Assembly: GCA_934086395.1 (NCBI GenBank)
Contig: CAKOIE010000005.1
Coordinates: 1-50,832 of the forward strand
Length of the DNA stretch: 50,832 bases
Origin: an uncultured Bacilli bacterium
GTDB taxonomy: Bacteria > Bacillota_I > Bacilli_A > RF39 > UBA660
Direction: 5' to 3'
The notes beneath the pieces were generated by a model. The model was not told the origin of the DNA. It saw nothing but the letters and a program-made list of their open reading frames with translations, and did no database searches. The position numbers were made by a program, and so were the translations under genes. Below, piece after piece: positions 1,878 through 50,832 of this stretch; position 1 is the first letter of the stretch, and each line of letters begins with the position of its first letter.

Positions 1878-2687
1878 TTAACTATTGAATTTTTCTTTAC
1901 TTGAAAAGAATTTAATAGATATTAGTATGGCAAATAAATCTTTTTTACCTTGAATTATATTATTATTTTTATCTTTCTTTAAATTAAATTCTTTATGATA
2001 TCTTGTTGTTTTAATACCCAACTTATCATCAATAAATGACATAAGTATATCATCATGACAACATATATTTCTAACTCTAACAAGTAGTCTTAACATATTA
2101 GCAACTTCACTACTATTAACATTTTCATTAGTTAGTTTCTTTTTCATATAATCTTTATCATTATTTTTAGATACATAGAACATATCACGAATCATACCAA
2201 ACGATAATATTTTCATATATACCCATAATGGAACAAATGAGTGATTATTTCTATAAAACATAACTGCTTTATTTTTAATTCCAAAATCATTTAATTGTTT
2301 ATCTAAATTAAATAATGTATCTGATAAATAATTATTAAAAATATCATAATTATTATTATTCAAAATATCTTCAATTTTAAAACCATATCTTGAACTATAA
2401 TTATTTGTATAAATAGTTTTTAATTTTTGTTCTATTTCAAATATTGGATCTAAAATAACTAATTTTAACATTTTATCAAAAATATATAATGAATATATGT
2501 CTTCAAATGATGTATTATTTTTATAAGTATCATCATTGTTTTTAAAAGCAAACTTATAACCCATAATAAAATAATAGTTATTTACTTCTAATATTTGTTT
2601 AACATCATTTTCATTTTTCAGATTAATGTTTTTAGATTTAATGTTAGTTATTAATTCATCGATAGTTAAAAATGTTTTGTCTGACAT
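1878..2687 (-). CDS. Abi_2 (AbiD/AbiF-like) abortive-infection protein, apparently truncated at the C-terminus by a 1-nt deletion
   Basis: Start re-set to ATG 2687 (MSDKTFLTIDELI), which has a GAGGTGA RBS; the track start at 2726 lies inside a terminator hairpin. The sequence has Abi_2 (PF07751) character (YYFIMGYKF..., RNICCHDD). The expected C-terminal about 40 codons continue in another frame to 1759. Confidence 0.75.
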   Translation of the reverse strand: MSDKTFLTIDELITNIKSKNINLKNENDVKQILEVNNYYFIMGYKFAFKNNDDTYKNNTSFEDIYSLYIFDKMLKLVILDPIFEIEQKLKTIYTNNYSSRYGFKIEDILNNNNYDIFNNYLSDTLFNLDKQLNDFGIKNKAVMFYRNNHSFVPLWVYMKILSFGMIRDMFYVSKNNDKDYMKKKLTNENVNSSEVANMLRLLVRVRNICCHDDILMSFIDDKLGIKTTRYHKEFNLKKDKNNNIIQGKKDLFAILISIKFFSSKEKFNS

Positions 2688-2714
2688 ATAATCATCACCT
2701 CGTGTTATTATATC

Positions 2715-2746
2715 AGAAAAAGGCACAAAAGAATAATCTTTTGTGC
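2715..2746 (-). terminator. Intrinsic terminator immediately upstream of the Abi gene
   Basis: On the minus strand, GCACAAAAG-attatt-CTTTTGTGC (perfect 9-bp stem) is followed by CTTTTTCTG. A TATAAT box and the Abi RBS follow. Confidence 0.65.
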
Positions 2747-7774: not shown

Positions 7775-9349
7775 CTAATCAATTTTAGTAATATTTATGA
7801 TATCTTCTTCTTGAAGATAAGATACTTTTAATTTATCGCCATTATTTATAAATGGAAGGTTATCTGATAATTCAATGGATGCTTTATATTTTTGATTGTT
7901 TGAATCAAGTATGTAATAATATGTTGTTCCATTTATTACGCTAGATTTTATAGATTTAATTATTATTTCTTTTGATATATCTTCGCCATTTTGAGTTAGT
8001 TTAACATTTTTTAAATAGTTATTAGCTGCTTCATTTATACCTTTTGATGAATCGGTTACGATTACTTTTTGGTAATCTTTTACATCAACAAAGCCATACA
8101 TTTTTACTAATCCGGCAGCATCTTTTAAACTTACTAAATAGGTTGGATTACCTTTAAGATTAATTAATAATGGGAAGGTAGATTTATATTTCATTTGTTG
8201 AACTGCACCTTCTGCTGATGCCATGGCACTATATTCTTCGGCCCCGGGTACACTATAAAAGCAAGTTGCACCGGTTCTCATATTAGTTAAAATAAATCCT
8301 AGATTTGATTCATCATTTACGATAGAGGTTAATCCAGTATAAAGGTATATATCATCATTCATAGCTAGATAGTTATAGCCATCAGTTGTGTTTACGACAT
8401 TCTTTTGAGAAAAGATGCTATTTAAGAAACCATTTTGATATGTTCCCCAGTCATCAACTTGTTCTATTATTAAATTAGCATTAAAGGCGATATCAATCCA
8501 TGTTGGAATATTTCCGATAAGATATTCTTCACTATCACCTGTTATGGCATTTAAAATTATTACACCTTCAACTTTAGCACGCATATTTATAGCACTATAT
8601 TTAAGAACAGGCATTACCCAATATGGATTATCTTCATTATCAATTTCAAATGATATATTACCAAAATTTTTTGTTGGATATTTAAATCTTAATTTACGAT
8701 AAACATTATCATTAAATAAGCCTGATTCAACATATTTCATTCCTTTGTCTAGTCTAATTAGTTCTGATTTTCCAGTTGTACTATCAACAGTTATATACCC
8801 CTTTACTCCTTCTTTACGATTAGTTAACCATTTTATAGGAGATGCATATTCTAAAGGTGTTACTCTAATTATTTTATTGTTATAGTTTATTTGAGTATAG
8901 ATATCTGATACATCATATTGACTTACTAAATCACTCATTTGGCCCATAACACGGTCTCCTAGGGCTTTACTACTTGTTTTATCAAGTAATGGTAATTTTG
9001 AAAAATCTACTTCTTGAATATCAGTGTTAAATTCTTTAGTAGAATCAACTTCAATCCGATTTGCATATTTTGAAGCCATAAATAGTGGACTTTCTATAAA
9101 ATTCCATAGCATGATTAAAACTAATATAGCAGGCACAGCTAGAAGTAAATAGTTTAGTTTAATAATTCTTTTGTCAAATGTGATTACTTTTTTTAGGTTA
9201 AATATTAAACTTATTCCATAATAAAATAGGATTATAAATATTATAAATAAATACAAGCTAATATTATGGATATTTAAAGCAGGTAAAAATAAGTAATAAT
9301 AAATAAACGCAAAAAGTATAGTTAAAATAATACTTAATATTTTTTTCAT
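7775..9349 (-). CDS. Conserved-looking membrane protein of unknown function (three N-terminal TM helices and a large extracytoplasmic domain)
   Basis: 524-aa ORF with MKKILSIILTILFAFIYYYLF and two further hydrophobic helices, then about 420 aa of soluble domain. I recognise no motif. Confidence 0.6.
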   Translation of the reverse strand: MKKILSIILTILFAFIYYYLFLPALNIHNISLYLFIIFIILFYYGISLIFNLKKVITFDKRIIKLNYLLLAVPAILVLIMLWNFIESPLFMASKYANRIEVDSTKEFNTDIQEVDFSKLPLLDKTSSKALGDRVMGQMSDLVSQYDVSDIYTQINYNNKIIRVTPLEYASPIKWLTNRKEGVKGYITVDSTTGKSELIRLDKGMKYVESGLFNDNVYRKLRFKYPTKNFGNISFEIDNEDNPYWVMPVLKYSAINMRAKVEGVIILNAITGDSEEYLIGNIPTWIDIAFNANLIIEQVDDWGTYQNGFLNSIFSQKNVVNTTDGYNYLAMNDDIYLYTGLTSIVNDESNLGFILTNMRTGATCFYSVPGAEEYSAMASAEGAVQQMKYKSTFPLLINLKGNPTYLVSLKDAAGLVKMYGFVDVKDYQKVIVTDSSKGINEAANNYLKNVKLTQNGEDISKEIIIKSIKSSVINGTTYYYILDSNNQKYKASIELSDNLPFINNGDKLKVSYLQEEDIINITKID

Positions 9350-9414
9350 ATGTTCCTCCGAATTTATTATATCAAGAAAAAATAGAATGTGATAGAATAT
9401 TATTTGTGATTAAT

Positions 9415-10314
9415 ATGTATTATAATAATTTAAGTGATTTTTATAAGAATAAATTTGGATGTAAAGTTGTTAAACTTTCTTTTGATGGTGGATTTAGTTG
9501 TCCTAATAGGGTTAATGGCTCTGGTGGTTGTATTTTTTGTTCAGGTTCTTATGAGTTTGCAGGAGATAGAAATAAGTCTTTAGAAGAACAATATCAAGAA
9601 CAAAGAATAGTGATGGATAAAAAATGGCCTAATGCGAAGTATATAGCTTATTTTGGTTCTTTTACTAATACTTTTGATACACTTGATAATTTAAAGAAAA
9701 GATTTGAAAAGGTTTTAAGTTTTGATAATGTGATTGGTTTATCAATTGGAACTAGAAGTGATTCAATTAGTAGTGAATGTTTTGAGTATTTAAGTGAGCT
9801 TAACAAAAGAACATTTTTAACAATTGAACTAGGGTTACAGTCTTCTTTTAATCAAACTTTAAAGTATATTAATAGAGGTCATGATATAGAAAATTTTGAT
9901 AGATGTGTTAAAAAACTAAAGGAATTAAATATTAATGTGGTTGTACATATTATTGATGGTCTTCCTGGTGAAACTGAAGATATGATGCTAGATACAGTTA
10001 GACATTTAAATAAACTAGATATAAATGGAATAAAGATACATAATCTATTTGTTGTTAAAAATACATTGCTTGGTAAAATGTATGAGGATAGTCCTTTTAA
10101 ATTACTTGAAAAAGATGAATATATTGATTTACTTGTTAAACAAATAAGAATTTTAAAACCTAGTATTGTAGTTCATAGATTAACTGGTGATCCTAAAAAA
10201 GAGGACCTCATTGCTCCATTATGGGCTGTTAAAAAAATTGATGTTTTAAATGGGGTTGTTAAGAAACTTAAGAAAGATAAAGCTTATCAAGGAATTGATT
10301 ATAAAGAAAATTAA
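9415..10314 (+). CDS. TIGR01212-family radical SAM protein
   Basis: FGCKVVKLSFDGGFSCPNRVNGSGGCIFCS is the characteristic N-terminal Cys motif of this family. Start set to ATG 9415 (the track uses GTG 9406), so the start is uncertain. Confidence 0.8.
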   Translation: MYYNNLSDFYKNKFGCKVVKLSFDGGFSCPNRVNGSGGCIFCSGSYEFAGDRNKSLEEQYQEQRIVMDKKWPNAKYIAYFGSFTNTFDTLDNLKKRFEKVLSFDNVIGLSIGTRSDSISSECFEYLSELNKRTFLTIELGLQSSFNQTLKYINRGHDIENFDRCVKKLKELNINVVVHIIDGLPGETEDMMLDTVRHLNKLDINGIKIHNLFVVKNTLLGKMYEDSPFKLLEKDEYIDLLVKQIRILKPSIVVHRLTGDPKKEDLIAPLWAVKKIDVLNGVVKKLKKDKAYQGIDYKEN

Positions 10315-10336
10315 AAAAGTCGTTATGACTTTTTTT
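10313..10336. terminator. Bidirectional terminator between convergent genes
   Basis: AAAAAAGTC-gttat-GACTTTTTT(T), a perfect 9-bp stem flanked by A and T runs. It spans the stop codons of both convergent ORFs. Confidence 0.65.
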
Positions 10337-11003
10337 GAAATGTATAAATATTTATTTTATGTTCTATAATTTTACTTGATATTTTTGCAGATACAGTTTC
10401 TCCATATATTACATTAAAGCATTTAATGGCGATAGGTAAGGTTTTAAATTTAAAATATGTATTAAAAGTTTTTTCTAATTTAAATTCATTTTGTATAATC
10501 CAAGAATTATAAATTTTCGTTCTTGTATCTTTGTCTCTATCACGTAATTGTTCAAATTCGCTATTTTCAGCATTTTCGATTAAGACCATAATTCCATCTT
10601 TTTTCAATACTCTTTTTAATTCAAACAATGCTTTATTTCTTTCTTCTAATTTAGTTATTGTCCCTAATACCCAACATGAAATTATTAAATCGACTGAATT
10701 GTCTTCTAATGGAATATTTGTTAAATCAGATGATATAAATATTGAATTAGATTTTTTAGATTTTGATTTTGCTTTTATTAATTGGTCATTTGATAAATCA
10801 ATTCCAATATATTTTTGAGCATCTTTTTCTATTGTTTCTAAAAATTTTCCCGTACCACAACCAGCATCTAAAACAATTTTATCATTAATAAGTGATTTTA
10901 TATAATCCCTAACTTTATTTTCATAATCTTCTGCTTGACTAAATATTTCGTAATAATCATTATCTTCATAATAAGCCTTAGAATCTTTTAATAGGTTTTT
11001 CAT
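10323..11003 (-). CDS. Class I SAM-dependent methyltransferase (last gene of the six-gene operon)
   Basis: 226 aa with motif I VLDAGCGTGKF and post-I IGIDLS. ATG has an AAAGGAAA RBS and overlaps the ATP-grasp gene by 26 nt. Confidence 0.8.
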   Translation of the reverse strand: MKNLLKDSKAYYEDNDYYEIFSQAEDYENKVRDYIKSLINDKIVLDAGCGTGKFLETIEKDAQKYIGIDLSNDQLIKAKSKSKKSNSIFISSDLTNIPLEDNSVDLIISCWVLGTITKLEERNKALFELKRVLKKDGIMVLIENAENSEFEQLRDRDKDTRTKIYNSWIIQNEFKLEKTFNTYFKFKTLPIAIKCFNVIYGETVSAKISSKIIEHKINIYTFQKKS

Positions 11004-12018
11004 ACATAGTTTCCTTTTTCATATCTACTGTTTCAGGATATATCATATCTACAATATACTTAGCAATATTTCGTGATTGTCCAATGGCTGGTCGATAATG
11101 CATATGAATACCTGGAACCGTATTTATCTCGATTATTTTATATGAATAATCATTTTGCTGATCTGATATAGAATTTGTCATAAAATCAATTCCAACATAT
11201 GGTAATCCCGGAAAGGCTTTTAAAACTTTTAAACCTATTTCAATAACACTTGGATGAACTTTGTCTGTATAATCTTCGCAAATTCCTCCCATAGCAACAT
11301 TTGAATTTGGTCTTAAATAAATTTTTTTACCCATTTGAGGTACACTATTTAAACTTAGATTATTTTTTCTTAAATATGAAATTAATTCTTCATCCACTAA
11401 AATTTCACATAATGCGTTAGTTCTTGGATTCATTCTTTCATAATTTTCTTTATTAATTAAATATTCTATTGTATGAATTCCATCGCCAAAAATATGGGCT
11501 GGATCACGTAATAAGACTGCATAGTTACCATTTCTAGTTATAAATACTCTATACTCTTTGGCATTATAATATTCTTCTATTATTATTCTGGTTGATTCTC
11601 CACGATGATTGATTATGTTAATTATAGCATTTTCAACATCCTGTTCAGTGATTAAATTTGTATATACGTCAAAACCATGAGAACCAAAGACTGGTTTTAT
11701 TACGACTGGACAGTTTAATATTTTAAATGCTCTTTTTATATAATCAATATCTTTAGCTAAAAATGATTCTCCAATTGGAACTGATATTCCATGTTGAATT
11801 AAATTTTTTTTGGTAAAATATTTATCGCCAGCTAATATAGAAACATTATATGGCATAATTGAAGAATCTCTATCAATTATTAGTTCTTCATGACCTTGAA
11901 ATGACGTTTTTATTATTTCTCTTTTTTCATTTATTACTTCAACACTTATTCCTCTTTTTAGCATTTCATATATAAAAATCTTTTGATTTGAATGCAAATT
12001 TTTATATATGTTTTCCAT
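10978..12018 (-). CDS. ATP-grasp ligase of the GshF C-terminal / cyanophycin-synthetase N-terminal type
   Basis: 346 aa. The pattern resembles the ATP-grasp domains of GshF and CphA: CPVVIKPVFGSHGFDV, EYRVFITRNGNYAVLLRDPAHIFGDGIHTI, YLRPNSNVAMGG, IIEINTVPGIHMH. Confidence 0.75.
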   Translation of the reverse strand: MENIYKNLHSNQKIFIYEMLKRGISVEVINEKREIIKTSFQGHEELIIDRDSSIMPYNVSILAGDKYFTKKNLIQHGISVPIGESFLAKDIDYIKRAFKILNCPVVIKPVFGSHGFDVYTNLITEQDVENAIINIINHRGESTRIIIEEYYNAKEYRVFITRNGNYAVLLRDPAHIFGDGIHTIEYLINKENYERMNPRTNALCEILVDEELISYLRKNNLSLNSVPQMGKKIYLRPNSNVAMGGICEDYTDKVHPSVIEIGLKVLKAFPGLPYVGIDFMTNSISDQQNDYSYKIIEINTVPGIHMHYRPAIGQSRNIAKYIVDMIYPETVDMKKETMYEKPIKRF

Positions 12019-12538
12019 TACCTGTTGTTCCTTTTTTTAATTCACTAATTAAAATGTCTAATTCAGTATTTTCTTGTTTTAATCTTTCTGTTTCTTGTTC
12101 ATATTTTCTTGCTTCAGCCACTAATCTGCTTAGCTCTTCTATTTTTTGTTTTCTTTCTAATAAAATTTTGTTTATATTTTCATCTTTTGGATTGACACTT
12201 ACAACTGTTGTTTTTAACCTTTCTATTAGTTTGTCAATGTCATCAAGACTATTATATTTTCTTTCTTTAGGCAATGGAGTTCCATCACTTAATGATTGAG
12301 GATAAGACACCGAAATATTTTCTGATGTTATATTTTGTTTTTCATTAGTTCTTGATTCTGATGTTATAAAATTTGAATTTGTTAGAGATGTTCTACTTTC
12401 GCCACTTGAGTATGATGATTGTGGTGATGTTGTTCTACTTTCGCCACTTGAATATAAAGGTCGTGATAATGAGGTCCTACTTTCGCCATAAGAATCTCTA
12501 AAACCATAGTTACTTCTACTTTCAAAATTACTTTCCAT
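12002..12538 (-). CDS. Ser/Thr/Arg-rich repeat protein with C-terminal coiled coil (unknown function; candidate substrate or scaffold of the operon)
   Basis: 178 aa. ATG lies 1 nt after the upstream stop, with an AAGGAGAG RBS inside the upstream gene. There are five ESR(T/S) motifs, and the C-terminal half is heptad-like and charged (KILLERKQKIEELSRLVAEARKYEQETERLKQENTELDILISELKK). Confidence 0.7.
   Translation of the reverse strand: MESNFESRSNYGFRDSYGESRTSLSRPLYSSGESRTTSPQSSYSSGESRTSLTNSNFITSESRTNEKQNITSENISVSYPQSLSDGTPLPKERKYNSLDDIDKLIERLKTTVVSVNPKDENINKILLERKQKIEELSRLVAEARKYEQETERLKQENTELDILISELKKGTTGNGKHI
12347..12526 (-). repeat. Intragenic repeats encoding five ESR(T/S) motifs at a 13-14-residue period
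   Basis: ESR occurs at residues 6, 19, 33, 47 and 61. Three units are YG/SSGESRT. DNA-level copies are TTCTACTTTCGCCACTTGA (twice) and TCCTACTTTCGCCATAAGA. Confidence 0.8.
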
Positions 12539-12539
12539 T

Positions 12540-13355
12540 TTAAATACTCTCCTTTATAAATACGGCATCAAGTAAATTTGTTTTATTTATTAATGCGCTA
12601 CTTAATGTTTCTATTTTTATATTTCCAAAGATTTTTTTAACATTTTCTATATCATCTATCGCACTTCGTTTTGTATTTTTATTAACATCATAAACATAAG
12701 CAAAATAAATATAATGAACATTCTTTAAAAAATTATTAATTAATTTATTATAATTTTCCAAACAATTATTCTCAAACATTAGGTCAAGATAATCAGAAAT
12801 ATTTGATAAAAACATATAATCGTATTTATCTTCTAATTTTAAATTTTTTAGATTGGTTTCTAAATAAACAATGTTTACGTTATCCAATCTTGTTTTTATT
12901 ATATCATAATTATGTTGATTAAAATATAAATTATAGTCCTTTTTAGCTTTTGGATCAAAATAATTTGTATTAAATAGGTCTGAATATTTAAGTTTCAATC
13001 CATCATTTTTATTTTTGGCTAATTCTTTAATCCAAAACTTTTTACATTTTTCATCTATTTTTAATGAAGTTATTATTTCGTATGAAAATGTTTTAGGCGT
13101 GTCAAATAAGATAAAATCTAAAAAATCATTATATTTTAATTGTTTTATTGCTGCTATTTTTAGTTCCATATAATATTTTGAATATGGATTAATATCAAAA
13201 GTTGTTATTTCATTGCATCCTTTTAAGATTACATTTAAAATGTGATCAGCTGATCCCGTGACTGTGACAATCTTTTTATTAGTTAAATCAAGTTTGTTCA
13301 TATATCCAGCTATATTTTCGGTTGTAAATAAATATATACTTTTAAATTTTTCCAT
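12540..13355 (-). CDS. Short DUF3419/BtaA-like SAM-dependent (3-amino-3-carboxypropyl-transferase-like) protein
   Basis: 271 aa. VTVTGSADHILNVILKGCNEITTFDINPYSKYYMELKIAAIKQLKYNDFLDFI mirrors the conserved N-terminal block of BtaA/DUF3419 proteins (SAGCN...VDLNPAQ..LLELK.AA...L.Y.DF). It is shorter than canonical BtaA. Confidence 0.6.
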   Translation of the reverse strand: MEKFKSIYLFTTENIAGYMNKLDLTNKKIVTVTGSADHILNVILKGCNEITTFDINPYSKYYMELKIAAIKQLKYNDFLDFILFDTPKTFSYEIITSLKIDEKCKKFWIKELAKNKNDGLKLKYSDLFNTNYFDPKAKKDYNLYFNQHNYDIIKTRLDNVNIVYLETNLKNLKLEDKYDYMFLSNISDYLDLMFENNCLENYNKLINNFLKNVHYIYFAYVYDVNKNTKRSAIDDIENVKKIFGNIKIETLSSALINKTNLLDAVFIKESI

Positions 13356-14793
13356 AGCATATTCCCTTTGATTTATTTTTTAAAAATTTTTGGATATTAT
13401 TATCATTTAAGACTTCCTTTAATGAATTATTTCTTAATGAGATTGAAGATATACATTTTTTATTATTTTCATATACCCATGGACAAGGACTAATAAATCC
13501 TTTGTTATTTATATAAAGAAATTTATCTCCTGCTGGACATTTTTTTATATATACTGGCTGTTGTCCAAAATTATAATTTATGATTATTTTATCATTATAT
13601 TTTTCTTTTAGTGCATTTATTTGATTAATTAAATTTTCATTTGATTCAGTTTTAATCAAATCTTTACTTTGACCTTCAACTGGTTCCATTATGGAAAATA
13701 TTATTTCATTAGCTTGTAAATTAATTGATTCTTCTATTACATTTTTTAAGCTATTTTCATTTTTTGCATGAATAACAGTACCAATTCTAATTTTATTTTT
13801 TGAATTTTTTAAATATTTTAATCCTTTGATTGTTCTTTCATAAGTCGTTTTACCTCTTACTGATTCTTGTTCTTCTTTATTACCATCTAGGCTAACGTGT
13901 ATCATTTTTAAATTTATTTGATTTAGTTTGTTAACTATTTCGGGAGTTATTAAGGAAGCATTAGTTGATATATCTACTGTAAGATTTTTGCTAGCATACT
14001 TTAATATATCAATAATATCTGTGCGAATAAAAGGCTCTCCACCTGTTATTTTTAAATGTTTATATCCATTGTTTACTAATTCGTCAATAACATGCTTACA
14101 TTCTTCGGTAGTCAACTCTCCATATACTCTTTTTTTATCACATGAAAAAATACAGTAAGAACAACCATAGTTACAATTATGTGTTATTTCCCATATTGCT
14201 TTTCCTTCATTTTTTGGTAATGTAAATTTACATTCCATTTTATTTTCTATAAATTCGTTTATTTTATTTATTTCCATATTTTCCTCTACTATCATAAACT
14301 TTTTTGATTCATATTGTTTTATATTAGATATTCTTTGTAATTCAAATCGTTTTATTATTTCCTCCTGTGAAAGGTCACTTTCTTTTAATCTATCTAATCT
14401 AACTTTTTCAGGGGTATTTAGATATATGATTTTATCAAATTTTTCGATTAAATTATCATTTATTATTAAAGCCCAATCAATAATTATTGTTTTATTTTTC
14501 ATTTTATCTATATAAGAAAATAAGTAATCATATAATATCTTTTTATAGTTATTCATATTATTTTGATTATTATAAATATACTTGTTTAAAATTTTTGAGT
14601 CTATTTTCTGATAGTTCTTCAATTCATTTATGTTTTGTTTTAATTTATTTATATAATTATTATTGTTGTATAAATTTCTTCTAAATACATCGACGTCTAT
14701 ATACTCAAAATTAGGATTTAATTCAATTAATTTTTTAGATAATGTGGTTTTGCCAGAAGACATGCCTCCTGTAATTCCTATTAATCTATTCAT
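13342..14793 (-). CDS. Fusion of a dephospho-CoA-kinase-like P-loop domain and a radical SAM enzyme with a SPASM/twitch-like C-terminus
   Basis: Start re-set to ATG 14793 (MNRLIGITGGMSSGKTT), which overlaps the upstream stop as ATGAATAG. CoaE-like motifs IGITGGMSSGKTT and IDVDVFRR; rSAM CxxxCxxC (HNCNYGCSYCIF); Cys-containing tail CPAGDKFLYINNKGFISPCPW...KKC...GIC. Confidence 0.75.
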   Translation of the reverse strand: MNRLIGITGGMSSGKTTLSKKLIELNPNFEYIDVDVFRRNLYNNNNYINKLKQNINELKNYQKIDSKILNKYIYNNQNNMNNYKKILYDYLFSYIDKMKNKTIIIDWALIINDNLIEKFDKIIYLNTPEKVRLDRLKESDLSQEEIIKRFELQRISNIKQYESKKFMIVEENMEINKINEFIENKMECKFTLPKNEGKAIWEITHNCNYGCSYCIFSCDKKRVYGELTTEECKHVIDELVNNGYKHLKITGGEPFIRTDIIDILKYASKNLTVDISTNASLITPEIVNKLNQINLKMIHVSLDGNKEEQESVRGKTTYERTIKGLKYLKNSKNKIRIGTVIHAKNENSLKNVIEESINLQANEIIFSIMEPVEGQSKDLIKTESNENLINQINALKEKYNDKIIINYNFGQQPVYIKKCPAGDKFLYINNKGFISPCPWVYENNKKCISSISLRNNSLKEVLNDNNIQKFLKNKSKGICYGKI

Positions 14794-16126
14794 ACCAACA
14801 CATCCCATACTTGATAGGAATAAAGGCTGCAATTTTAGTATTTTTTTCTAAATTATTATATTTATTCCAATCAATGTCATCAAAAATTATACTATATCCT
14901 TTTTGTTTTAAATCTTCTATTAATAAATTTATTCCTTCTGTTAGTTCCTTATTGACGTTGTTAGGGTGATTAGAATGAATGTATTGACTTTTATTTACTA
15001 TATTTTTATTCTCTTCAAAAATAGGTGTGCCTACTCTATACGCTAAATAATGCAATCTTAATTCATGTGGCTCTATTTCGTTTATTAATTTTCTAGTTAA
15101 GTTTAAATCTTCTTTTGTTGTGTTAGGATAATCTAGAATAATACTATTTCTTACTCTGTATCCTATTGCTTTTACTTCTTTAATTATTCTTTTTATATTA
15201 TCTATATTCATATTTTTTTGCATATAATTTAAGATTTTTAAACTTCCTGATTCAATTCCAAAGTGAATCCATCTAAAACCAATGTCATACATTTCTTTAA
15301 ACATTTTTTCATCATAGCAAGATATACTACTAAGACAGCCAAATAAACATTTTATATTCCTGCTTTTTATTTCGTTACATATATCAAACATTCTTTTTTT
15401 ATCTACTGTCATATTATCATCTAAAAAAATTATTTTTTTAGTATTATAATTATTTATAAGGTATTCAATCTCATCAACAACCTGTTTATAATTTTTTGAT
15501 TGCCAATTCTTAAAAAATACCGGAGTTGTGCAAAATGTACATTTTCCTATGCAACCACGAGAAGTTATCATTGTTCTAGTATCCATATATTTACTGATGT
15601 CTAATAACTCTCTTTTAGGAATATCTAAATCTTTAAAATAATTTGTTGTTTTTTGATTAGAAGTTAATATTATTTTATTGTGATTTTTATAAGCTAAATT
15701 TGGTATTTTATATAAATCACCATTTGATATTATGCAATCTATTACTTCATTAATAATATTATCTGCTATGCCTTTAATTACGATATCAAACCCATTATTT
15801 AAAAATTTTTCGTAGTAGTATGAAGAAGTTTTTCCAATAATAATAAACTTAGTTTCTTTATTACAATTTTTTATTATTTCAAACATATTATTTATTGTTT
15901 CACTTGTGTGAAGTGGTAATTGATAGTCATAAACAAATATTACAATATTTTTATCTTTTAAATATTCATTAATGTTATTATCCATTCTATTTACATCCAT
16001 ATCGATAACATTTACTTTATGCTTTTTATTTATTATTGTTGCAATTTGAAGAACATCTAGTGGTTCAGCTAATATTGATTTATTTGTAAATGGTTTGTTT
16101 GGTGGATTAATGACTAAAATATTCAT
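14786..16126 (-). CDS. B12-binding-domain (class B) radical SAM protein
   Basis: 446 aa. N-terminal Rossmann-like B12-binding-type region (MNILVINPP...NIVIFVYDY...FIIIGK), then the rSAM cluster SRGCIGKCTFCT. AAGGAGAAAAAT-ATG RBS. Confidence 0.8.
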   Translation of the reverse strand: MNILVINPPNKPFTNKSILAEPLDVLQIATIINKKHKVNVIDMDVNRMDNNINEYLKDKNIVIFVYDYQLPLHTSETINNMFEIIKNCNKETKFIIIGKTSSYYYEKFLNNGFDIVIKGIADNIINEVIDCIISNGDLYKIPNLAYKNHNKIILTSNQKTTNYFKDLDIPKRELLDISKYMDTRTMITSRGCIGKCTFCTTPVFFKNWQSKNYKQVVDEIEYLINNYNTKKIIFLDDNMTVDKKRMFDICNEIKSRNIKCLFGCLSSISCYDEKMFKEMYDIGFRWIHFGIESGSLKILNYMQKNMNIDNIKRIIKEVKAIGYRVRNSIILDYPNTTKEDLNLTRKLINEIEPHELRLHYLAYRVGTPIFEENKNIVNKSQYIHSNHPNNVNKELTEGINLLIEDLKQKGYSIIFDDIDWNKYNNLEKNTKIAAFIPIKYGMCWYE

Positions 16127-16158
16127 ATTTTTCTCCTTAATTGTCTCGTTTTTAAAAT

Positions 16159-16187
16159 ATTTTATCTAAAATAAATAATTTTTGCAA
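16159..16187 (-). promoter_or_regulatory. Putative sigma-A promoter of the six-gene operon
   Basis: On the minus strand, TTGCAA (16182-16187), a 17-nt spacer and TAAAAT (16159-16164), about 33 nt upstream of ATG 16126. Confidence 0.5.
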
Positions 16188-16239
16188 TTGATATTGAAAC
16201 AATTTTATTTTTTAAATAATCATAAAATTAGACAATATT

Positions 16240-16275
16240 AAAAGAGTTAACTTAGGACCAAATGTTAACTCTTTT
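16240..16275 (-). terminator. Hairpin overlapping the M13 peptidase stop codon (weak terminator)
   Basis: AAAAGAGTTAAC-N12-GTTAACTCTTTT, a perfect 12-bp inverted repeat. The U-run is limited to the stem end. Confidence 0.4.
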
Positions 16276-18186
16276 TTCTGGTTCAATATACATTAAATCT
16301 TTTGAATCTATTTTATATGTTTCGTAAAACTTTTTGGTTGATGATAATACTCCGTTTACTCTTATTTCATTAGGTGAATGAGTATCAATTAAACTTTGTA
16401 ATACTTTAGTGCTTTTACTATAATTATTAGCCCAAACTTTAGCAAATGATTCGTAGGTTGTTTGATAATCTTTTTTATTTGCATTATTTTTTATTAAGAT
16501 ATTTGTAATGCATTCCATAGCGCCTAAATCAGCAATGTTTTCACCAATTGTACGAGTTCCATTATTAGAAACATTATGAATAATTTCGTAGTTGTTGTAG
16601 TACTCAATAACTTTATTTTGAATTTCTTGATATTTTTCTTGGCTTGATGCGGTGTACCAATTACTAAGAAAGCCATTTTCATCAAATTTTGAACCATTAT
16701 TATCAAATGCATGGGATATTTCATGAGCTATTATGAAACCAATACTTCCAAGATTTTCATATTTATTGTTAATATCTTTAATTACTTTAGTGCTTCCAGT
16801 TAATATATTAATTGAGTTTGATGTAACATCATAATAGGCATTAAATGTATAATCTGGTAGAGCATTAGTCGTAGTAGTTGTATCTAACATTTCGTATGAT
16901 GCAGATCTCACTACTTTGTTAAGATTAATAATATTTTTTACTAATGAAATATTACTATCAAAATCATAGTATGAAGAAAAATCTTTAATATAGTTTGTAC
17001 CAATATTTATTTTAATATTGTTTAGTTTAGTTACAGCCTTACTTTTTGTTTCATTATCCATCCAAGATGTATTTATCATGTCTTCATATTCTTTAATTAT
17101 TTCATTTGTAAGATTAGAGATATAATTTTTAGTATCTTCAGTTAAGTATTTATTGTTGTAATTTTTGGAAATCTCATTAGGATATATTTGTTTAATTAAA
17201 TCATAAGCCGTTTCTTCTCTAGTATATTCTTTACCTAATAAATTTTTATTTAGTTTGGTAAATATTGTTTCATAATTTTCAGTTGTATATACAGCATAAG
17301 TTTGAAGTATTTTTATTGTTGCTATATTTTTCCATAAAGAAAGATTACTATTTGTTAAATATTTATTTAATTCTTGATATGATTTTTCATCAACTAAGCT
17401 TAGTTTATCTATTTTAGATAGGCCTAATTCATTAAAATATTTGTTAATATCTAAATTAGTATAAATTTTACTTAACGCTGATTTATCAATAATATTATAG
17501 TATTTTTCAGTATTTAATAAATCATCTTGTTTTAATGAATTATTAGCTAGATTTGTATAGAAGTCATCGATTTGATTAGTTATATCTAAGACTTCTCCAG
17601 CGGTATAACCATATTCTCTTAATAGTTTGTTATTATATAATTTAAAATTATTTTTTACAGTAGTTAATGTTTCGTTGCTATAATAATCTGATGAATAACC
17701 GTAATCCATTGGAATTGATGTTATATATAAAATGTTCTTTCCTGTTTTAAAATCTTTCATGATTGATTTAGACATTAATAATTCAATACCTAGTTCTTTT
17801 TCTAGTTTTATTGCTTCAGTAATAAAGTCGTTAATATTTGTTGTTTTATTAATTTTATCTATGTATGGCTCTAAATCTTTTAATCCATTCTTGTTACGAA
17901 CATCAATATTTAAATATTCATTATAAAATTCTTTAATATTTTTTTCTTCACTTGTAGTTGGATTATTTATTATTTCTTTTACTATGTTGTTAGAATCATT
18001 AGAAATTTCTTTGTTTATATCATCAATATATGACCAACCATCTTTTTTATCTTTAATTGCTTCTTTATTTATGTATTCGTAATAATTATCAATATAATTT
18101 TTATTTAAGTAAATAAATGCAGTTATTATAACAACAACAAATATTATTGCATATAGAATATATTTTTTAGTTTTATTTTTAGTCAC
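16252..18186 (-). CDS. pepO: M13-family (neprilysin/PepO-like) zinc metallopeptidase with N-terminal membrane anchor
   Basis: 644 aa with HEISHAF (HExxH), ENIADLGA and the distal NAYY block typical of M13. TM anchor YILYAIIFVVVIITAFIYL. The GTG start overlaps the upstream permease stop by 8 nt. Confidence 0.85.
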   Translation of the reverse strand: MTKNKTKKYILYAIIFVVVIITAFIYLNKNYIDNYYEYINKEAIKDKKDGWSYIDDINKEISNDSNNIVKEIINNPTTSEEKNIKEFYNEYLNIDVRNKNGLKDLEPYIDKINKTTNINDFITEAIKLEKELGIELLMSKSIMKDFKTGKNILYITSIPMDYGYSSDYYSNETLTTVKNNFKLYNNKLLREYGYTAGEVLDITNQIDDFYTNLANNSLKQDDLLNTEKYYNIIDKSALSKIYTNLDINKYFNELGLSKIDKLSLVDEKSYQELNKYLTNSNLSLWKNIATIKILQTYAVYTTENYETIFTKLNKNLLGKEYTREETAYDLIKQIYPNEISKNYNNKYLTEDTKNYISNLTNEIIKEYEDMINTSWMDNETKSKAVTKLNNIKINIGTNYIKDFSSYYDFDSNISLVKNIINLNKVVRSASYEMLDTTTTTNALPDYTFNAYYDVTSNSINILTGSTKVIKDINNKYENLGSIGFIIAHEISHAFDNNGSKFDENGFLSNWYTASSQEKYQEIQNKVIEYYNNYEIIHNVSNNGTRTIGENIADLGAMECITNILIKNNANKKDYQTTYESFAKVWANNYSKSTKVLQSLIDTHSPNEIRVNGVLSSTKKFYETYKIDSKDLMYIEPEKRVNIWS

Positions 18187-19324
18187 CGAACAACACCTTC
18201 TCTTGATTATATTTTTTTATTATTAGAAATACAGTTATGACAGATAATATGAGTGTACTTATGATCGTCATTAAAATATTTAAAGTATTAAAGTTATTTG
18301 AGAATATATCCATAAGAATTTGAACACAGTTGACAATTGGAATTGCATAGTAAATTAAACTATCAGTTGAAATACTTAAGATGTTTGTAAATAAAGGTAT
18401 CATTGATAGGTATTGTAATATAGCAAGCTTGATTCCGGCTTCTTTAGCCGTTTTAGTGTTAGCAACTAGAATGGTTGCAAGAGCAGAAATTACAAGTGAT
18501 GATGCTAAACTAACACATAATCCAATTAAGATACTTTTAGTTGATACGGAAATATTCAAATTGCTAAATGATACAAAATAATGACTTGAAATAACTAGGG
18601 TTAATAATACGGATAAGAATTCGATTATTGATGCGGCAGCACTGGCAATAAAGTTAGCTAAGTATTTTCCTAATATTAGTTCTTTTTGAGATATTGGAAA
18701 ACTTAGGATAGTTTCTAGAGTTCCACTTTCTTTTTCGGTAACGGTTGTTGATATGGCCATTGACTGGGATGTTGATATTATTCCAGCAAAAATAAGCATA
18801 AATAGGGTTGAATAAATTGTTACAAGAATAAAGTCGCTACCTTCTAATTCTTTAAATTCATAATTATATTTGGCGTTTATTTCTTCATAATCAATACCTT
18901 CTCCTGCAACGTATGTTATTAGTTCATTGTTTTTTAATGATTCAAAGTAACCTTTAATTAAACTTTGTAGTTTATAACCATCTTGACTATTATCAGTATA
19001 AAAATAATACTTTTTTTCTTCTTTGTTATAATCTATGTAAGCATTTATATCTTTATCTTTATAGGACTTTTCCATTTCACCCAGATTATCATATTTAACT
19101 GTTTCTAATTGATATTCGCTACTTACGATGTTTTCGATAATATTTGGTTCAAAGTCAATTCCTACTTTGTATGGTTCTAAAACTTGGTTTTGATCAAACA
19201 TGACTCCATAAACTATGACAAAGAACATTCCAATTAAAGGCATAGCAAGTAAAGTTATAAATGTTTTTTTATCTCTAACGATAGAACGAAGTTCTTTTTT
19301 GATTGTTATTATTATATTATTCAT
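18179..19324 (-). CDS. ABC-2-type transporter permease (NatB-like)
   Basis: 381 aa. N-terminal TM, a large extracytoplasmic loop and five C-terminal TMs, which is the ABC-2 architecture. It overlaps the upstream ATPase gene by 8 nt. Confidence 0.75.
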   Translation of the reverse strand: MNNIIITIKKELRSIVRDKKTFITLLAMPLIGMFFVIVYGVMFDQNQVLEPYKVGIDFEPNIIENIVSSEYQLETVKYDNLGEMEKSYKDKDINAYIDYNKEEKKYYFYTDNSQDGYKLQSLIKGYFESLKNNELITYVAGEGIDYEEINAKYNYEFKELEGSDFILVTIYSTLFMLIFAGIISTSQSMAISTTVTEKESGTLETILSFPISQKELILGKYLANFIASAAASIIEFLSVLLTLVISSHYFVSFSNLNISVSTKSILIGLCVSLASSLVISALATILVANTKTAKEAGIKLAILQYLSMIPLFTNILSISTDSLIYYAIPIVNCVQILMDIFSNNFNTLNILMTIISTLILSVITVFLIIKKYNQEKVLFGD

Positions 19325-20069
19325 TATCTTCTCCTATTAATTTTAAAAACGCATCTCTAATGTTGGTTGTATTAGTATTTTTTAAAATTTCTTCACTTTT
19401 TCCGTAGGCAATAACTTTACCTTTATTAATAAGTAATAGTTTATCACAGATGTTTTCTGCTTCTTCCATATAATGAGTTGAATATAATATGCATTTGCCT
19501 TTAGTTTTTTCTTCGTTAATAAAATCTAAAATTGTTTTACTAGAAATAACGTCTAGCCCACTTGTTGCTTCATCTAAGATATAATATTTTGGATTATGAA
19601 CTAGGCAACGAGCAATACATGTTCTTTGGTACTGACCAGTAGATAAACTTTCAATTCTTTGATAAGCAAATGATTCCATATTAAATCTTTTAATAATATC
19701 ATTTATGATTTTTCCTAATTTATCCTTGGGAACTCCATAATATTCACCACACATTTTTAGTAATTCATAGGGTGATATATCCTTATATAATTTAGTATTT
19801 CCTGACATGAAAGCGATATTTTTCTTAATTGTTTCATTATTTTTTTGGTAGTTCATGTTGTCAATTAAAATCTCACCGCTATCTGGTTTCATAATTCCTG
19901 ATATCATTCTAAGTAATGTTGTTTTACCTGCTCCATTAGGTCCTAGAATCCCTAAAACTTCACCTTCCATTGCAGTAAATGAGATATTATTATCAGCAAG
20001 AAATGTTTCTATTTTATTTAGGTTGTTTTTTTTCTGAAAACTTTTTGTTACGTTTTTTATTTCAATCAT
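19317..20069 (-). CDS. ABC transporter ATP-binding protein (NatA-like)
   Basis: 250 aa with Walker A GPNGAGKTT, signature LSTGQYQR and Walker B YYILDEATSGLD. AAAAGGAG RBS. Confidence 0.9.
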   Translation of the reverse strand: MIEIKNVTKSFQKKNNLNKIETFLADNNISFTAMEGEVLGILGPNGAGKTTLLRMISGIMKPDSGEILIDNMNYQKNNETIKKNIAFMSGNTKLYKDISPYELLKMCGEYYGVPKDKLGKIINDIIKRFNMESFAYQRIESLSTGQYQRTCIARCLVHNPKYYILDEATSGLDVISSKTILDFINEEKTKGKCILYSTHYMEEAENICDKLLLINKGKVIAYGKSEEILKNTNTTNIRDAFLKLIGEDNE

Positions 20070-20466: not shown

Positions 20467-21801
20467 TCACTTCTTTTCTCGTAAATATCTTTTTAATAAA
20501 AATGTCATAAAATATGGAAATGTATAAAATTTTCCATTAAATTCAATATTTTTATTACATAATTTGATACCATATTTTATATCTTCATATTTTTCATTAT
20601 CAATTAATTTGTTTAATGATACAGTTGAATTATCATTTGCTTTTACTTCTACCGGAATAAGAGAATTTTTATCTCTTATAAAGAAATCCATCTCTATTGT
20701 ACCTTTTTCATTTTTATAAAAATATAGATTATATCCTTCTTTTACCAACATATCAGATACAATATTTTCATAAATTGCACCTTTATATGTATTAAAATTT
20801 TTATTTTCTCTTAAATCATTTTGTGCTTCAGCATCTAATGATCCAATTAATAACCCTGTATCAGCAAAATAAACTCTATAATTATCAGAATTATAATTAC
20901 CGCCCAACGGTAATGAAATATTTTCCATACAATAGGAAATATTAATTATACCGGAATTTTTAAGCCAATCTATTGTCCCAACATATTCTCAATTTCTAGA
21001 TCCGCTACTAATTTTAGATATTTAGAATTTTTTATTTTCATTACCTAGAAATGTTGGTATTTTTCTATAAACACTTAATATTTTTTCTTGGCCTAAGCCA
21101 CCAGCATATTAAGTAATATCTTCTTCGTAATCTAGAAGAATTTGTTTTTGCATGTCTAATAATCCACTATAATTATTTTGAGTTACAAATTTTGCGACAA
21201 TTGCAGGCATTCCACCTATAACCATATATTCTTTAAAATTTTCAAACATAACATCATATTGAATTTTTGATAAGGGAACTAAATCTTTCATACATTTATA
21301 TAAATCTTCTATTTGACTTTTTATATCCTTTAGCCCATAAAAATTCTTCAAAATCTAATGAATACATATTATAATCTGTTTTATATCCAACACTGTATGA
21401 GTCTATTTCTTTATAATTAATACCCATCATTGATCCTGAGCATATAACATCATACCTTCCATCTATTTTAAAAGGTTTAAGGGATGTTGCACAATTAAGT
21501 AATGCTTGTAACTCATCAAAAAATATTAATGTTTTATTAGGAACAAATCTAAATTTCGAATTTTTTAAAAAAATATTTTTAATTATTTGGTCAACTTCAA
21601 AACCATTCTCAAAAATATCAGAATATTCTTTTTGAACAGCAAAATTTATTTCAACAATGTTTTGATAATTATTTTTTGCAAAATACTCAATTGTTTCGGT
21701 TTTACCAATCTGTCTTGCTCCCCTTATTATTAATGAATAATGATTTTCATCATTTTTCCAATTAATTAAAAATCATCTATTTTTCTCTTTAATCTTACCA
21801 T
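20467..21801 (-). pseudogene. Decayed AAA_14/DUF4143-family ATPase gene (two frameshifts and three in-frame stops)
   Basis: GGAGG-N7-ATG at 21801. MVRLKRKIDDF runs to a frameshift in the homopolymer at 21768-21772. LINWKNDENHYSLIIRGARQIGKTE...FEEFLWAKGYKK runs to a frameshift in the homopolymer at 21318-21322. In-frame stops are TAA 21109-21111, TAA 21022-21024 and TGA 20989-20991. The C-terminal DUF4143-like part is ORF 20467..20928. Confidence 0.8.
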
Positions 21802-24900: not shown

Positions 24901-25175
24901 TAACTTTGAAATATAAATCCAATTTTATGATTTCTATAAGTATCCCAATCTCTATCATTATAATTTTTAGTACTTATTCCATTAATAATTAAATCTCCAC
25001 TATCATATTTATCTAATCCACCAATAATATTTAAAAGTGTTGTTTTACCACTTCCTGAAGGACCCAATATTGATGCAAATTCATTATCTCTAAAATTAAC
25101 ACTTACATTATCAAGTGCTTTTTGAGTATAATTATCTACTTTATATTCTTTACAAATATTTTTAATTTCAAGCAT
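21996..25175 (-). CDS. Fused ABC transporter: MacB/LolD-like ATPase, large extracytoplasmic domain and C-terminal FtsX-type permease
   Basis: Start re-set to ATG 25175 (MLEIKNICKEY), which has a GGAGG RBS. Walker A GPSGSGKTT, signature LSGGQMQR, Walker B LLADEPTGALD. The C-terminal FtsX-like block is LERTKEIGILRAIGASKKNI plus three TMs. Confidence 0.85.
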   Translation of the reverse strand: MLEIKNICKEYKVDNYTQKALDNVSVNFRDNEFASILGPSGSGKTTLLNIIGGLDKYDSGDLIINGISTKNYNDRDWDTYRNHKIGFIFQSYNLIGHQTILSNVELALTLAGISKAERRKRAIEALDKVGLKDHINKRPNQLSGGQMQRVAIARALINNPDILLADEPTGALDSVTSVQIMELLKEVAKDKLVIMVTHNPELAKKYSTRIIELKDGKIISDNNPCKEKSKISKKIDNVKKTSMSFITALSLSFNNLMIKKKRTLLVSFASSIGIIGIALILGLSTGFQNYIDKLQEDTLASYPLTITTEHSDLTNMLLTMVSDESDNEGDKVIEKQYISSMFGNVKSNDLKTFKGYIDENYDLIKNDISTIKYSYNVEPLIYTRDVTHKITKINPSDMFSSFGASSMYSFSSVFNQMIDDISSLEKDYSVLAGSWPKNYNEMVIVLSSKNTISDLLVYSLGLRDSSELNNMIKDIMAGKEVNIKNDPMEFTYEDLMNVKLKLVNPSDMYKYNSKYKVYEDLSEDSDYVKKIYDNAEELKIVGVVAPNSSNSSMSLMAGVAYPSSLTKHIIELASESEIVKKQLENENIDVFTNKAFDSKKSNTNINFEDMISIDKDMLQSAFGITLDENKLKNMTSGYTKKIEESISTDNSGALNDFNKVLNDIMNGFINDYDSNPRESITKDDKVYKVISLSKVSDYVNEYINNDGVSDSLSELEKNYYVPSSVFKDAYKGLLLAFLNSYIGSYSVNDSSFNDGTEVKALFNKDLIDGSLDIFLKSSAVSLTGSKMADGMIEAKMKVNILTTVGELSNNLLKDVASSFNVDQDKIAKAFKFNLSEKELSRLMNAFSSDEMGSASSNLSSLGYQNIENPSMISLYFNSFDSKENVLKFIDNYNEEVKNNNEEEKIINYTDTTGILMKSVKKIVDSVSYVLIAFVSISLIVSSIMIGIITYISVLERTKEIGILRAIGASKKNISSIFNAETFIIGLLSGIIGIGISLILLVFINQLIHKLTGNPDITAVLPLISSLILISLSVVLTLIGGLIPSRIASKKDPVEALKTE

Positions 25176-25260
25176 AATTATATACCTCCTAGATAAATAA
25201 TATTTTATCACACAAGATAATTTTATTGAAGAATTTCAAAAATTATAACTATCAAAATTT

Positions 25261-27006: not shown

Positions 27007-27037
27007 AAAAATGATTAGTGCAAACTAACCATTTTTT
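27007..27037. terminator. Bidirectional terminator between convergent genes
   Basis: AAAAATGATTAG-tgcaaa-CTAACCATTTTT(T), a 12-bp stem with one mismatch, flanked by A and T runs. Confidence 0.55.
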
Positions 27038-50694: not shown

Positions 50695-50832
50695 AATGTA
50701 TCCTCCTATACTAATAAGATTATACAATAATTAACGATTTAAATAAAGAAAAATAGTCTATGTTAGACCATATTAGTTATTACTCCAATACTCCATATAT
50801 AAATATGGGGTATTTTTATAATCTCTGATAGT

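Follow-up and report, generated by a model that had tools for sequence, protein, structure and literature searches.

Why does a protein with five Glu-Ser-Arg (ESR) motifs have its gene in the midst of genes for modifying enzymes, and is it the protein on which these enzymes act? The gene is found in DNA from an uncultured Bacilli bacterium (contig CAKOIE010000005.1 of assembly GCA_934086395.1); the whole stretch analyzed here, 50,832 nucleotides (nt) in length, is referred to as the window. A preliminary description, made from the letters of the window, had proposed that the ESR protein is a candidate multi-site substrate or precursor. Based on comparison with related loci, we consider the ESR protein to be a dedicated, ribosomally made multi-site substrate of a self-contained post-translational modification cassette, and we put the probability of this reading at roughly 0.6. 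A substrate of the cassette enzymes is the most likely identity of the protein because it always occurs within the same set of modifying-enzyme genes. Further grounds for the reading are the invariant position in the operon, translational coupling, a near-invariant motif in a disordered region, the freedom with which this motif varies in number and side, and a separate helical module that seems exchangeable.

The cassette lies on the minus strand, and its genes, which include two radical S-adenosylmethionine (SAM) enzymes, have the following order:

14786..16126 (-), B12-binding radical SAM enzyme, first gene of the cassette (Pfam, NCBIfam; CxxxCxxC at residue 192)
13342..14832 (-), kinase–radical SAM fusion protein, composed of a CoaE-like P-loop kinase and a following radical SAM enzyme with a partial SPASM/twitch-like C terminus (GGMSSGKT, DVD; C220x3Cx2C)
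12540..13355 (-), DUF3419/BtaA-like enzyme (271 aa; class I SAM-binding fold), directly upstream of the ESR gene
12002..12538 (-), ESR-motif protein of 178 aa, with a disordered N-terminal tail and a C-terminal helical domain
10978..12018 (-), ATP-grasp amide ligase of 346 aa, nearest to GshAB and the G domain of cyanophycin synthetase, with first nucleotides that are shared with the end of the ESR gene
10323..11003 (-), class I SAM methyltransferase, with which the cassette ends (motif I VLDAGCGTG), syntenic in all complete loci

The ESR gene is translationally coupled to both flanking enzyme genes. Its ATG is located 1 nt after the stop codon of the DUF3419-like gene, its ribosome-binding site (AGGAG) sits within the 3′ end of that upstream gene, and its final 17 nt are shared with the start of the ATP-grasp gene. 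The preliminary description had already placed the gene between modifying-enzyme genes, with its ribosome-binding site inside the upstream gene, and both statements were correct. Within the ESR gene, the following elements can be distinguished:

12350..12523 (-), motif-bearing tail, residues 6–63, disordered, with a predicted local distance difference test (pLDDT) score of ~40
12515–12523, 12476–12484, 12434–12442, 12392–12400, and 12350–12358 (-), the five ESR motifs
12527–12538 (-), degenerate M-E-S-N copy, a sixth copy of the family motif, at the start of the protein (residues 2–3)
12387..12488, 42-nt tandem repeat, 2.4 copies with 81% matches (Tandem Repeats Finder)
12023..12259 (-), conserved helical domain, residues 94–172 (KYNSLDDIDKLIERL ... 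loop ... long helix), with invariant or near-invariant columns and helices in the AlphaFold2 model

Translation agrees with the motifs as originally reported, ESR being present at residues 6, 19, 33, 47, and 61 in the contexts FESRS, YGESRT, SGESRT, SGESRT, and TSESRT. Composition-preserving shuffling of the N-terminal tail gave a mean of 0.19 ESR, and five or more were reached in none of 20,000 shuffles. In a six-frame translation of the window, the ESR gene was the sole open reading frame (ORF) with at least two ESR or at least three [SG]ES. That the repeats are also visible at the DNA level, as had been claimed, is borne out by the 42-nt unit, and the window's protein has a 14-residue period because this unit underwent a recent tandem duplication.

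The AlphaFold2 model (20-sequence alignment) has residues 1–89 disordered, with pLDDT ~40, and helices at residues 98–113 and 120–172 with pLDDT 75–95. These helices uphold one part of the earlier assignment of residues ~95–170 to a coiled coil. For the coiled coil itself support is modest, because in a heptad test of the long helix, in which 60% of the a/d positions were hydrophobic compared with 18% elsewhere, 137 of 5000 shuffles equaled the observed pattern. No family in Pfam, NCBIfam, or PADLOC matched the ESR protein at cutoff, the sub-threshold matches being coiled-coil noise (DUF7491, FliJ, PDC-M14B, ATG17, and similar), and a Foldseek search of the PDB with the AlphaFold2 model returned generic helical hairpins only (best E=0.64).

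Homologs of the ESR protein were collected by a word-indexed search, which gave 25 unnamed proteins, and by a profile search of 1.84 billion representatives, which gave 96. The family ranges in size from 117 to 236 aa. Its members have in common a helical domain of ~80 residues, (K/R)YN(S/N)LDDIDxLIExLE ... N..L..R..KI..L..L...A ... LE..N.ELD..I, and tails rich in Ser, Glu, Arg, Gly, and Tyr. The family motif is [S/G]-E-S-R, present in 0 to 10 copies per protein, and most of the proteins start with M-(S)-E-S. Of the 80 representatives usable for analysis of placement, 39 have ES[R/H] only N-terminal to the helical domain, 11 have it only C-terminal to the domain, 28 carry it on both sides, and 2 lack it; within the helical domain, no ES[RH] was found in any of the 80. 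Of the 39 proteins with motifs C-terminal to the domain, 30 finish in ...ESRW.

The composition of the tails was analyzed in 81 proteins, each standing for a 50%-identity cluster. Where the other residues of the motif are given, the remaining one is almost fixed: 293 of 296 instances of [SG]ExR have Ser as x, and 293 of 300 instances of [SG]xSR have Glu. The motif Glu is preceded by Ser (202), Gly (91), or the initiator Met (18). Of ~480 ES sites, 345 continue with Arg and the others with N, S, H, or A. Glu in the tails has Ser next to it in 483 of 657 instances, compared with 175 ± 10.5 in shuffles; for ESR, 350 were observed and 16.5 ± 4 were obtained by shuffling, and for [SG]ESR the corresponding numbers are 297 and 5.7 ± 2.4. 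Cys is rare in the tails (61 of 6218 residues) and unconserved.

Spacing follows a different pattern. Family-wide, the interval between motifs has its mode at 5–6 residues (126 intervals), with a broad shoulder at 9–20, and the 13–14-residue spacing is confined to the window lineage. The position after ESR varies across the family, Thr or Ser at this position also being a feature of the window lineage only, and a 98% identical homolog carries ESRP. Near-identical strains differ in motif copy number, and an 87% identical homolog (P0002) lacks exactly one 14-residue unit. A 95% identical copy, in locus L004, retains all five ESR motifs. The tail as a whole is hypervariable while the enzymes are 50–79% identical, and the sequences between motifs are not conserved across the family. 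The strict 13–14-residue period with Thr or Ser after ESR, which the preliminary description had emphasized, is therefore specific to one lineage. That description had named missing conservation of the ESR(T/S) periodicity as the observation that would count against its proposal. The periodicity is indeed not conserved among homologs, but the yardstick was badly chosen, because the motif, not its spacing, is what is conserved.

Some family members have an extra conserved module straight after an ESRG motif, ...SYEDWLKTxPxxxxGGLSSxxEMHxAYxEW..., which is without a Pfam match. It was seen in L012 (7794–8441), P0009, P0013, P0015, P0267, P0276, P0282, P0288, P0289, L021, and L048. In L012/P0327, the module is duplicated along with its SGESRISSESRG motifs.

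The order of the cassette genes was identical in all 12 loci reached via the ESR protein or the fusion protein, with an ORF containing ESR motifs between the DUF3419-like and ATP-grasp genes. For a less biased test of synteny, 73 metagenomic loci were retrieved with the DUF3419-like protein alone. All 36 of those with both the DUF3419-like and the ATP-grasp gene hold a motif ORF between them, in a stretch of 293–649 nt that encodes 2–9 [S/G/M]ES[R/H] motifs. The expectation that homologous operons would carry a similarly placed repeat ORF was thus correct for every cassette examined, also with regard to a variable number of repeats (0–10), and failed with regard to conserved ESRT spacing. In canonical cassettes, the enzymes are 46–80% identical to those of the window, and the ESR protein aligns in its helical part only, with 33–56% identity.

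A more distant cassette (L057–L061) has enzymes that are 34–52% identical to the window's. In one of these loci (L058, 5790–7281), two separate genes, adjacent and overlapping, take the place of the fusion gene and encode a CoaE-like kinase of 185 aa and a radical SAM enzyme of 313 aa. The ORF in the ESR position begins with MSESRGGESRSYSSYTPSYSSYGESRSSGESR... and retains the motifs MSESRGGESR...GESRSSGESR. Its charged helical region was not aligned to the family profile by hhalign, the alignment being restricted to 26 columns of the motif region. Because only the motif region aligns in the distant cassette, the [S/G]ESR motif is, by this comparison, the most deeply conserved feature of the ESR gene, and the helical module appears exchangeable. 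The suggestion, made at the outset, that the helical part is a separate docking or oligomerization module is supported by the same comparative evidence.

The enzymes have their catalytic motifs intact (P-loop, DVD, two CxxxCxxC, and methyltransferase motif I), and none of the cassette proteins was matched at an NCBIfam equivalog cutoff. The B12-binding radical SAM enzyme is 60–74% identical to the window's in canonical cassettes and 43% identical in the distant L057–L061. It is closest to C-methyltransferases of protein residues (TIGR04014, ApyD), and a B12-binding domain was found by Pfam in the L058 orthologue.

In the fusion protein, the P-loop GGMSSGKT is intact, and the DVD of the kinase domain corresponds to the DAD of dephospho-CoA kinases. 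The ORF as listed begins at TTG; because the homologs are 483–484 aa in length and cover 97% of it, translation probably begins at M14 (nt 14793). The search with the fusion protein gave 339 homologs at E≤1e-10, and among the 120 matches listed the architecture was the same in all but two truncated entries; the P0076 cluster of this fusion has 435 member sequences. Pfam assigned Radical_SAM (E=5.7e-26) and SPASM (22.3 bits, with a cutoff of 21.5). Only four Cys (432, 450, 460, and 492) follow the radical SAM core, which is below the number in a full SPASM domain. The best matches of the radical SAM domain were the SPASM peptide/cofactor maturases AhbD (7e-34), TIGR04053, MftC (8e-30), and StsB, and SkfB was the best PDB match by sequence.

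The DUF3419-like protein matched PF11899 (E=1.6e-14; 54.3 bits, with a gathering cutoff of 28.2) at profile positions 5–120 of 385 only. It has 385 homologs and an AlphaFold2 model with pLDDT 91.8. A sequence search of the PDB gave no relative, and Foldseek, run with the model, gave remote class I methyltransferase folds only (Dam, NNMT; template modeling score ~0.4). As matches of a predicted structure, these confirm SAM binding and nothing more. DUF3419-like genes also occur in a different system, in locus L063 (1–4927), which consists of four tandem paralogues (28–36% identical to the window's) followed by a PNP_UDP_1 gene (methylthioadenosine/S-adenosylhomocysteine-nucleosidase-like) and has no ESR protein and no ATP-grasp enzyme; this system might help to define the reaction of DUF3419-like SAM enzymes.

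The ATP-grasp enzyme matched NCBIfam TIGR02068 (E=1.4e-68; 231.7 bits, with a cutoff of 850) over model residues 210–474 (the G domain) only and PDB entry 7wac (CphA1; E=1e-43) over residues 62–330. Its best NCBIfam and Pfam matches were cyanophycin synthetase, GshAB, and NAGGN synthetase, and no graspetide or microviridin ligase model was among the 16 NCBIfam and 5 Pfam matches. Hence, the ATP-grasp macrocyclase of the preliminary description has to be replaced by an enzyme closest to amide ligases of the cyanophycin synthetase G domain and GshAB type.

That these enzymes act on the [S/G]ESR motif is something we infer from comparative evidence. As proposed here, the [S/G]-E-S-R motifs in the disordered tails would be the modified sites, whereas the helical domain of ~80 residues would act as a handle that recruits the enzymes or oligomerizes the substrate. 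The copy number and position of the motif could drift freely because each motif would undergo its own round of chemistry. The roles of the single enzymes can be proposed with low confidence. The γ-carboxylate of Glu, which is the sole carboxylate in the motif, is a likely target of the ATP-grasp enzyme, which would form an acyl phosphate and then an amide. The Ser hydroxyl, the sole hydroxyl in the motif, is a likely target of the kinase and/or the BtaA-like enzyme. BtaA transfers the 3-amino-3-carboxypropyl group of SAM onto a primary alcohol, and the BtaA-like enzyme could catalyze aminocarboxypropyl or methyl transfer to Ser. The methyltransferase and the B12-binding radical SAM enzyme would add N/O- and C-methyl groups, and cross-linking or another oxidation would be the task of the second radical SAM enzyme. 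One coherent, unproven scheme would start with O-alkylation of Ser, continue with amide closure onto Glu, and be completed by methylations and a radical step. The protein, once modified, might be kept whole or be cut down to small products.

Considered as a kind of molecule, the ESR protein can be likened to cluster-encoded ribosomal substrates with repeated sites. Its logic also recalls that of long-leader precursors. Among peptides that are synthesized ribosomally and modified post-translationally (RiPPs), multi-core precursors are known from plesiocin-type graspetides, cyanobactins (PatE), fungi (UstA), and plants (BURP-domain proteins, with N-terminal core repeats and a folded C-terminal domain). 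The ESR protein resembles these in being a ribosomal product encoded within an enzyme cluster, in having a short motif of variable number in an unstructured region, in its separate conserved region with a possible recruiting function, and in the fact that the enzymes are far more conserved than the substrate. The general features of such precursors are present, namely a repeated motif, a variable copy number (0–10), and an ORF encoded together with the enzymes in 36 of 36 cassettes. It differs in the motif itself, the helical domain, and the enzyme set, in having motifs on either side of the recognition domain, in its length of 117–236 aa, and in having no conserved protease, exporter, or cleavage site. 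Identity as a graspetide is not supported, the ATP-grasp enzyme falling outside the MdnB/MdnC clade and being closest to CphA1 (PDB E=1e-43); the motif does offer adjacent Glu and Ser, but the protein shows none of the core or leader patterns known from graspetides, and its sequence gives no basis for a ring.

The enzymes invite similar comparisons. The fusion protein's radical SAM domain finds its best matches in SkfB/PqqE/MftC/AhbD-like maturases and shares with them a Cys-containing C-terminal extension, and Pfam recognizes both Radical_SAM and SPASM. Unlike these maturases, it stays below every equivalog cutoff, has four post-core Cys, and carries a CoaE-like kinase in place of a PqqD-like RiPP recognition element (RRE). 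The residues that characterize radical SAM/SPASM RiPPs, i.e., Cys in sacti- and ranthipeptides, E...Y in PQQ, and a C-terminal VY in mycofactocin, have no counterpart in [S/G]ESR, which lacks Cys and a Tyr/Val C terminus. Ligases of the CphA G domain, GshAB, and RimK type activate a carboxylate as an acyl phosphate and turn it into an amide, in some cases on protein tails, with tubulin tyrosine ligase-like glutamylases as analogues, and the cassette's ATP-grasp enzyme matches them strongly over its whole core. It is not a cyanophycin synthetase: it is a stand-alone protein of 346 aa without the N and M domains of CphA1 (three-domain N-G-M, ~870 aa), and it scores 231.7 bits against a cutoff of 850. 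BtaA and BtaB, a DUF3419 3-amino-3-carboxypropyl transferase and an N-methyltransferase, form a pair in betaine-lipid synthesis. The cassette likewise encodes a DUF3419-family SAM enzyme together with a class I methyltransferase, and the Ser hydroxyl of the motif would be available. In contrast to BtaA, the window's protein (271 aa, compared with 385 positions) covers only the N-terminal third of the DUF3419 model and has no lipid context, and aminocarboxypropyl transfer by this enzyme is putative.

Several observations weigh against the substrate reading. All of the support for modification is comparative. No RRE (PqqD-like domain) was found in any cassette protein with Pfam at E≤0.01, and no protease, exporter, or regulator was conserved with the cassette among 383 flank ORFs from 50 loci. 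At 117–236 aa, the ESR proteins are large for RiPP precursors. A CoaE-like kinase combined with a weakly viperin-like radical SAM enzyme would also fit nucleotide chemistry. Finally, the shuffle statistics for the motif are inflated by duplication within proteins and by common descent, although the enrichment is very large despite this inflation and holds across 50%-identity clusters.

The window contains further genes that matter for the choice between explanations. They are located directly upstream of the cassette, in the same orientation:

16127–16251, gap of 125 nt between the cassette and the M13 gene
16252–18186 (-), M13 (PepO-like) metallopeptidase, window lineage only
18179–19324 (-), ABC-2 permease, window lineage only
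19317–20069 (-), ABC ATPase, window lineage only

The M13 peptidase and ABC transporter were found with the cassette in the window and L004 only; the latter is an “uncultured Bacilli bacterium” metagenome-assembled genome (MAG) from the Hadza gut and belongs to the same species (88–99% identity). By this comparison, these genes are probably not core parts of the cassette. Clustering of the 383 flank ORFs revealed lineage-local synteny only, e.g., with RecG, and ABC ATPase genes were found near the cassette in 4 of the 50 loci. The 125-nt gap holds a promoter-like site, in a scan for promoters and terminators that performed no better than chance in this AT-rich DNA (103 sites, with 101.8 expected).

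These data can be set against other explanations. The ESR protein could be an ordinary low-complexity coiled-coil protein that lies among enzyme genes by chance and owes its repeats to replication slippage. The window's 14-residue period does reflect a recent 42-nt tandem duplication, and disordered tails rich in Ser, Glu, and Arg are common. However, the position of the gene is kept in 36 of 36 independently retrieved cassettes, the gene is translationally coupled, and the motif is retained across lineages with unrelated spacers and even with an unrelated helical part. Synteny and motif statistics already contradict this explanation, and we regard it as extremely improbable. An exported multi-core RiPP precursor, in which the ESR units would be cores that, once modified, are excised by the M13 peptidase and exported by the ABC transporter encoded next to the cassette, would account for a repeated core in variable copy number, for the peptidase and ABC-2 transporter genes directly upstream in the window, and for the ABC ATPase genes near the cassette in 4 of 50 loci. 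Yet the peptidase and transporter occur in the window's species only (window and L004), behind a 125-nt gap, and no flanking family is conserved across lineages. The unconserved sequences between the motifs do not define a core or a cleavage site beyond the motif, and the ATP-grasp enzyme is not of the graspetide type. We consider export after excision improbable. Of the multi-site substrate or precursor first proposed, the substrate is supported by comparative evidence and a precursor that is cut and exported is not, the M13 and ABC genes being restricted to the window's species.

Two further explanations seem somewhat less improbable, although both are unlikely. The ESR protein may be a carrier or scaffold, with Glu side chains or the C terminus tethering a small molecule that is released later while the protein is recycled, following the logic of LysW/LysX or pearlins. 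The ATP-grasp enzyme belongs to an amide-ligase clade with LysX and RimK (weak matches) and the G domain with which cyanophycin synthetase extends a C-terminal carboxylate; the frequent ...ESRW ends (30 of 39 proteins with C-terminal motifs), a set of kinase, ligase, and tailoring enzymes that looks like a small-molecule pathway, and the lack of a conserved protease or exporter are in line with such a role. The likeness to LysW/LysX extends to the protein being small and acidic, with a Glu carboxylate that an ATP-grasp enzyme encoded next to it could load, ahead of a kinase and further enzymes. Against this, about half of the family is without a C-terminal motif and has other ends (e.g., ...GFHR, ...KHI), no releasing hydrolase is conserved in the cassette, and a simple tether leaves the invariant Ser and the frequent Arg beside Glu unexplained. 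The zinc finger and the EDWGE tail of the small LysW-type carriers are both missing here, LysX is matched far less well than CphA (4.5e-13 compared with 1.4e-68), and the many sites are internal rather than a single one at the C terminus, so that identity with LysW/LysX was rejected. To a similar degree, we doubt that the protein is a non-substrate accessory, i.e., an assembly scaffold, chaperone, or regulator for the five enzymes, with ESR as a binding motif and a nucleotide or other metabolite as the true substrate. Multivalent short motifs combined with a coiled coil are typical of scaffolds, the CoaE-like kinase retains the P-loop and DxD of dephospho-CoA kinases, the radical SAM domain matches the PADLOC model “viperins associated with kinases” (E=4.5e-22), and there is the missing RRE. 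However, the radical SAM domain fits SPASM families better (AhbD, 7e-34; MftC, 8e-30; SkfB as best PDB match), and a copy number of 0–10 would be odd for a stoichiometric scaffold. Near-absolute conservation of three consecutive residues over 50%-identity clusters, while the folded domain is replaced, is rare for binding motifs. A viperin-plus-kinase defence system was rejected as an identity: the NCBIfam viperin model scores 59.8 bits against a required 180, the PADLOC pVip match (E=4.5e-22) is weaker than the SPASM matches, and the kinase is CoaE-like.

The substrate reading allows a bolder proposal, to which we give slightly less than even odds, namely that uncultured gut Bacilli and Clostridia use the cassette to make a new class of ribosomal protein or peptide with modifications at many sites. 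At up to ten places in a chain, Glu-Ser-Arg with Ser or Gly before it would become a modified residue or ring. Six activities would bring this about (two radical SAM enzymes, a CoaE-like kinase, a BtaA-like SAM alkyltransferase, a cyanophycin-synthetase-like ligase, and a methyltransferase), and they would be directed by a helical docking domain that is exchangeable and can be placed on either side of the sites. Full-text searches of the literature for combinations of the enzymes and for motif strings returned nothing on the cassette or the motif, and the enzyme set and the motif appear to be undescribed in Pfam, NCBIfam, PADLOC, and the searchable literature. The combination of a CoaE-like kinase-radical SAM fusion, a BtaA-like SAM enzyme, and a CphA-like ligase was not found in the libraries and literature searched. 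If the motifs are modified, this would be uncharted post-translational chemistry that is apparently widespread in human and animal gut metagenomes. The recognition logic would be very small and portable, a four-residue site and a helical handle, which is attractive for enzymology and peptide engineering. The reading offers a testable function for proteins of uncultured Bacilli annotated as “hypothetical,” “DUF3419,” or “dephospho-CoA kinase,” and it gives experiments on new post-translational chemistry in abundant uncultured gut bacteria a concrete and tractable starting point.

According to the database records, the hosts of the cassette are gut and digester MAGs of uncultured Bacilli, Clostridia, Bacillota, and “Mollicutes,” with related loci in Hadza, rabbit, and generic human-gut assemblies. 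No cassette match was found in viral contigs. A role in anti-phage defence was considered and rejected, given that the PADLOC matches are generic (pVip, mad2, PDC-M51A), that viral contigs gave no match, and that the neighboring defence genes differ by locus. Such neighbors include AbiD, Wadjet, Fic, and YobI, with Abi_2 in L013 and a YobI-ATPase together with Fic in L002. This variability is compatible with the cassette residing in variable genome regions.

Other genes of the window include a complete type II Wadjet anti-plasmid system at 36866–44816 (-), composed of JetA2 (43332–44816), JetB2 (42152–43339), JetC2 (38095–42207), and JetD2 (36866–38098), as identified with PADLOC and Pfam. It is followed by a Fic-domain gene (PDC-S04; 35359–36030), and an AbiD/Abi_2 abortive-infection gene is located at 1878–2726 (-). 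Just upstream of the ABC genes, at 20467–20928 (-), lies a 153-aa C-terminal fragment of a DUF4143 ATPase (PDC-S01). A fused ABC ATPase/FtsX permease (1071 aa; 21996–25211, -), a CPBP (Rce1-like) intramembrane protease (470 aa; 27036–28448, -), and an Amidase_3 protein with four LysM repeats (33936–35162, -) look like ordinary envelope functions. On the other side of the cassette, a YtqA-like radical SAM gene in opposite orientation (9406–10314) separates it from a 524-aa ORF (7775–9349, -), which neither Pfam nor PADLOC matched and whose conservation is limited to L004. At 46063–50727 (-), the window encodes an FtsK/SpoIIIE-family protein of 1554 aa, of which a 1536-aa counterpart is located ~8 kb from the cassette in L001 (cited at L001 17292–17878).

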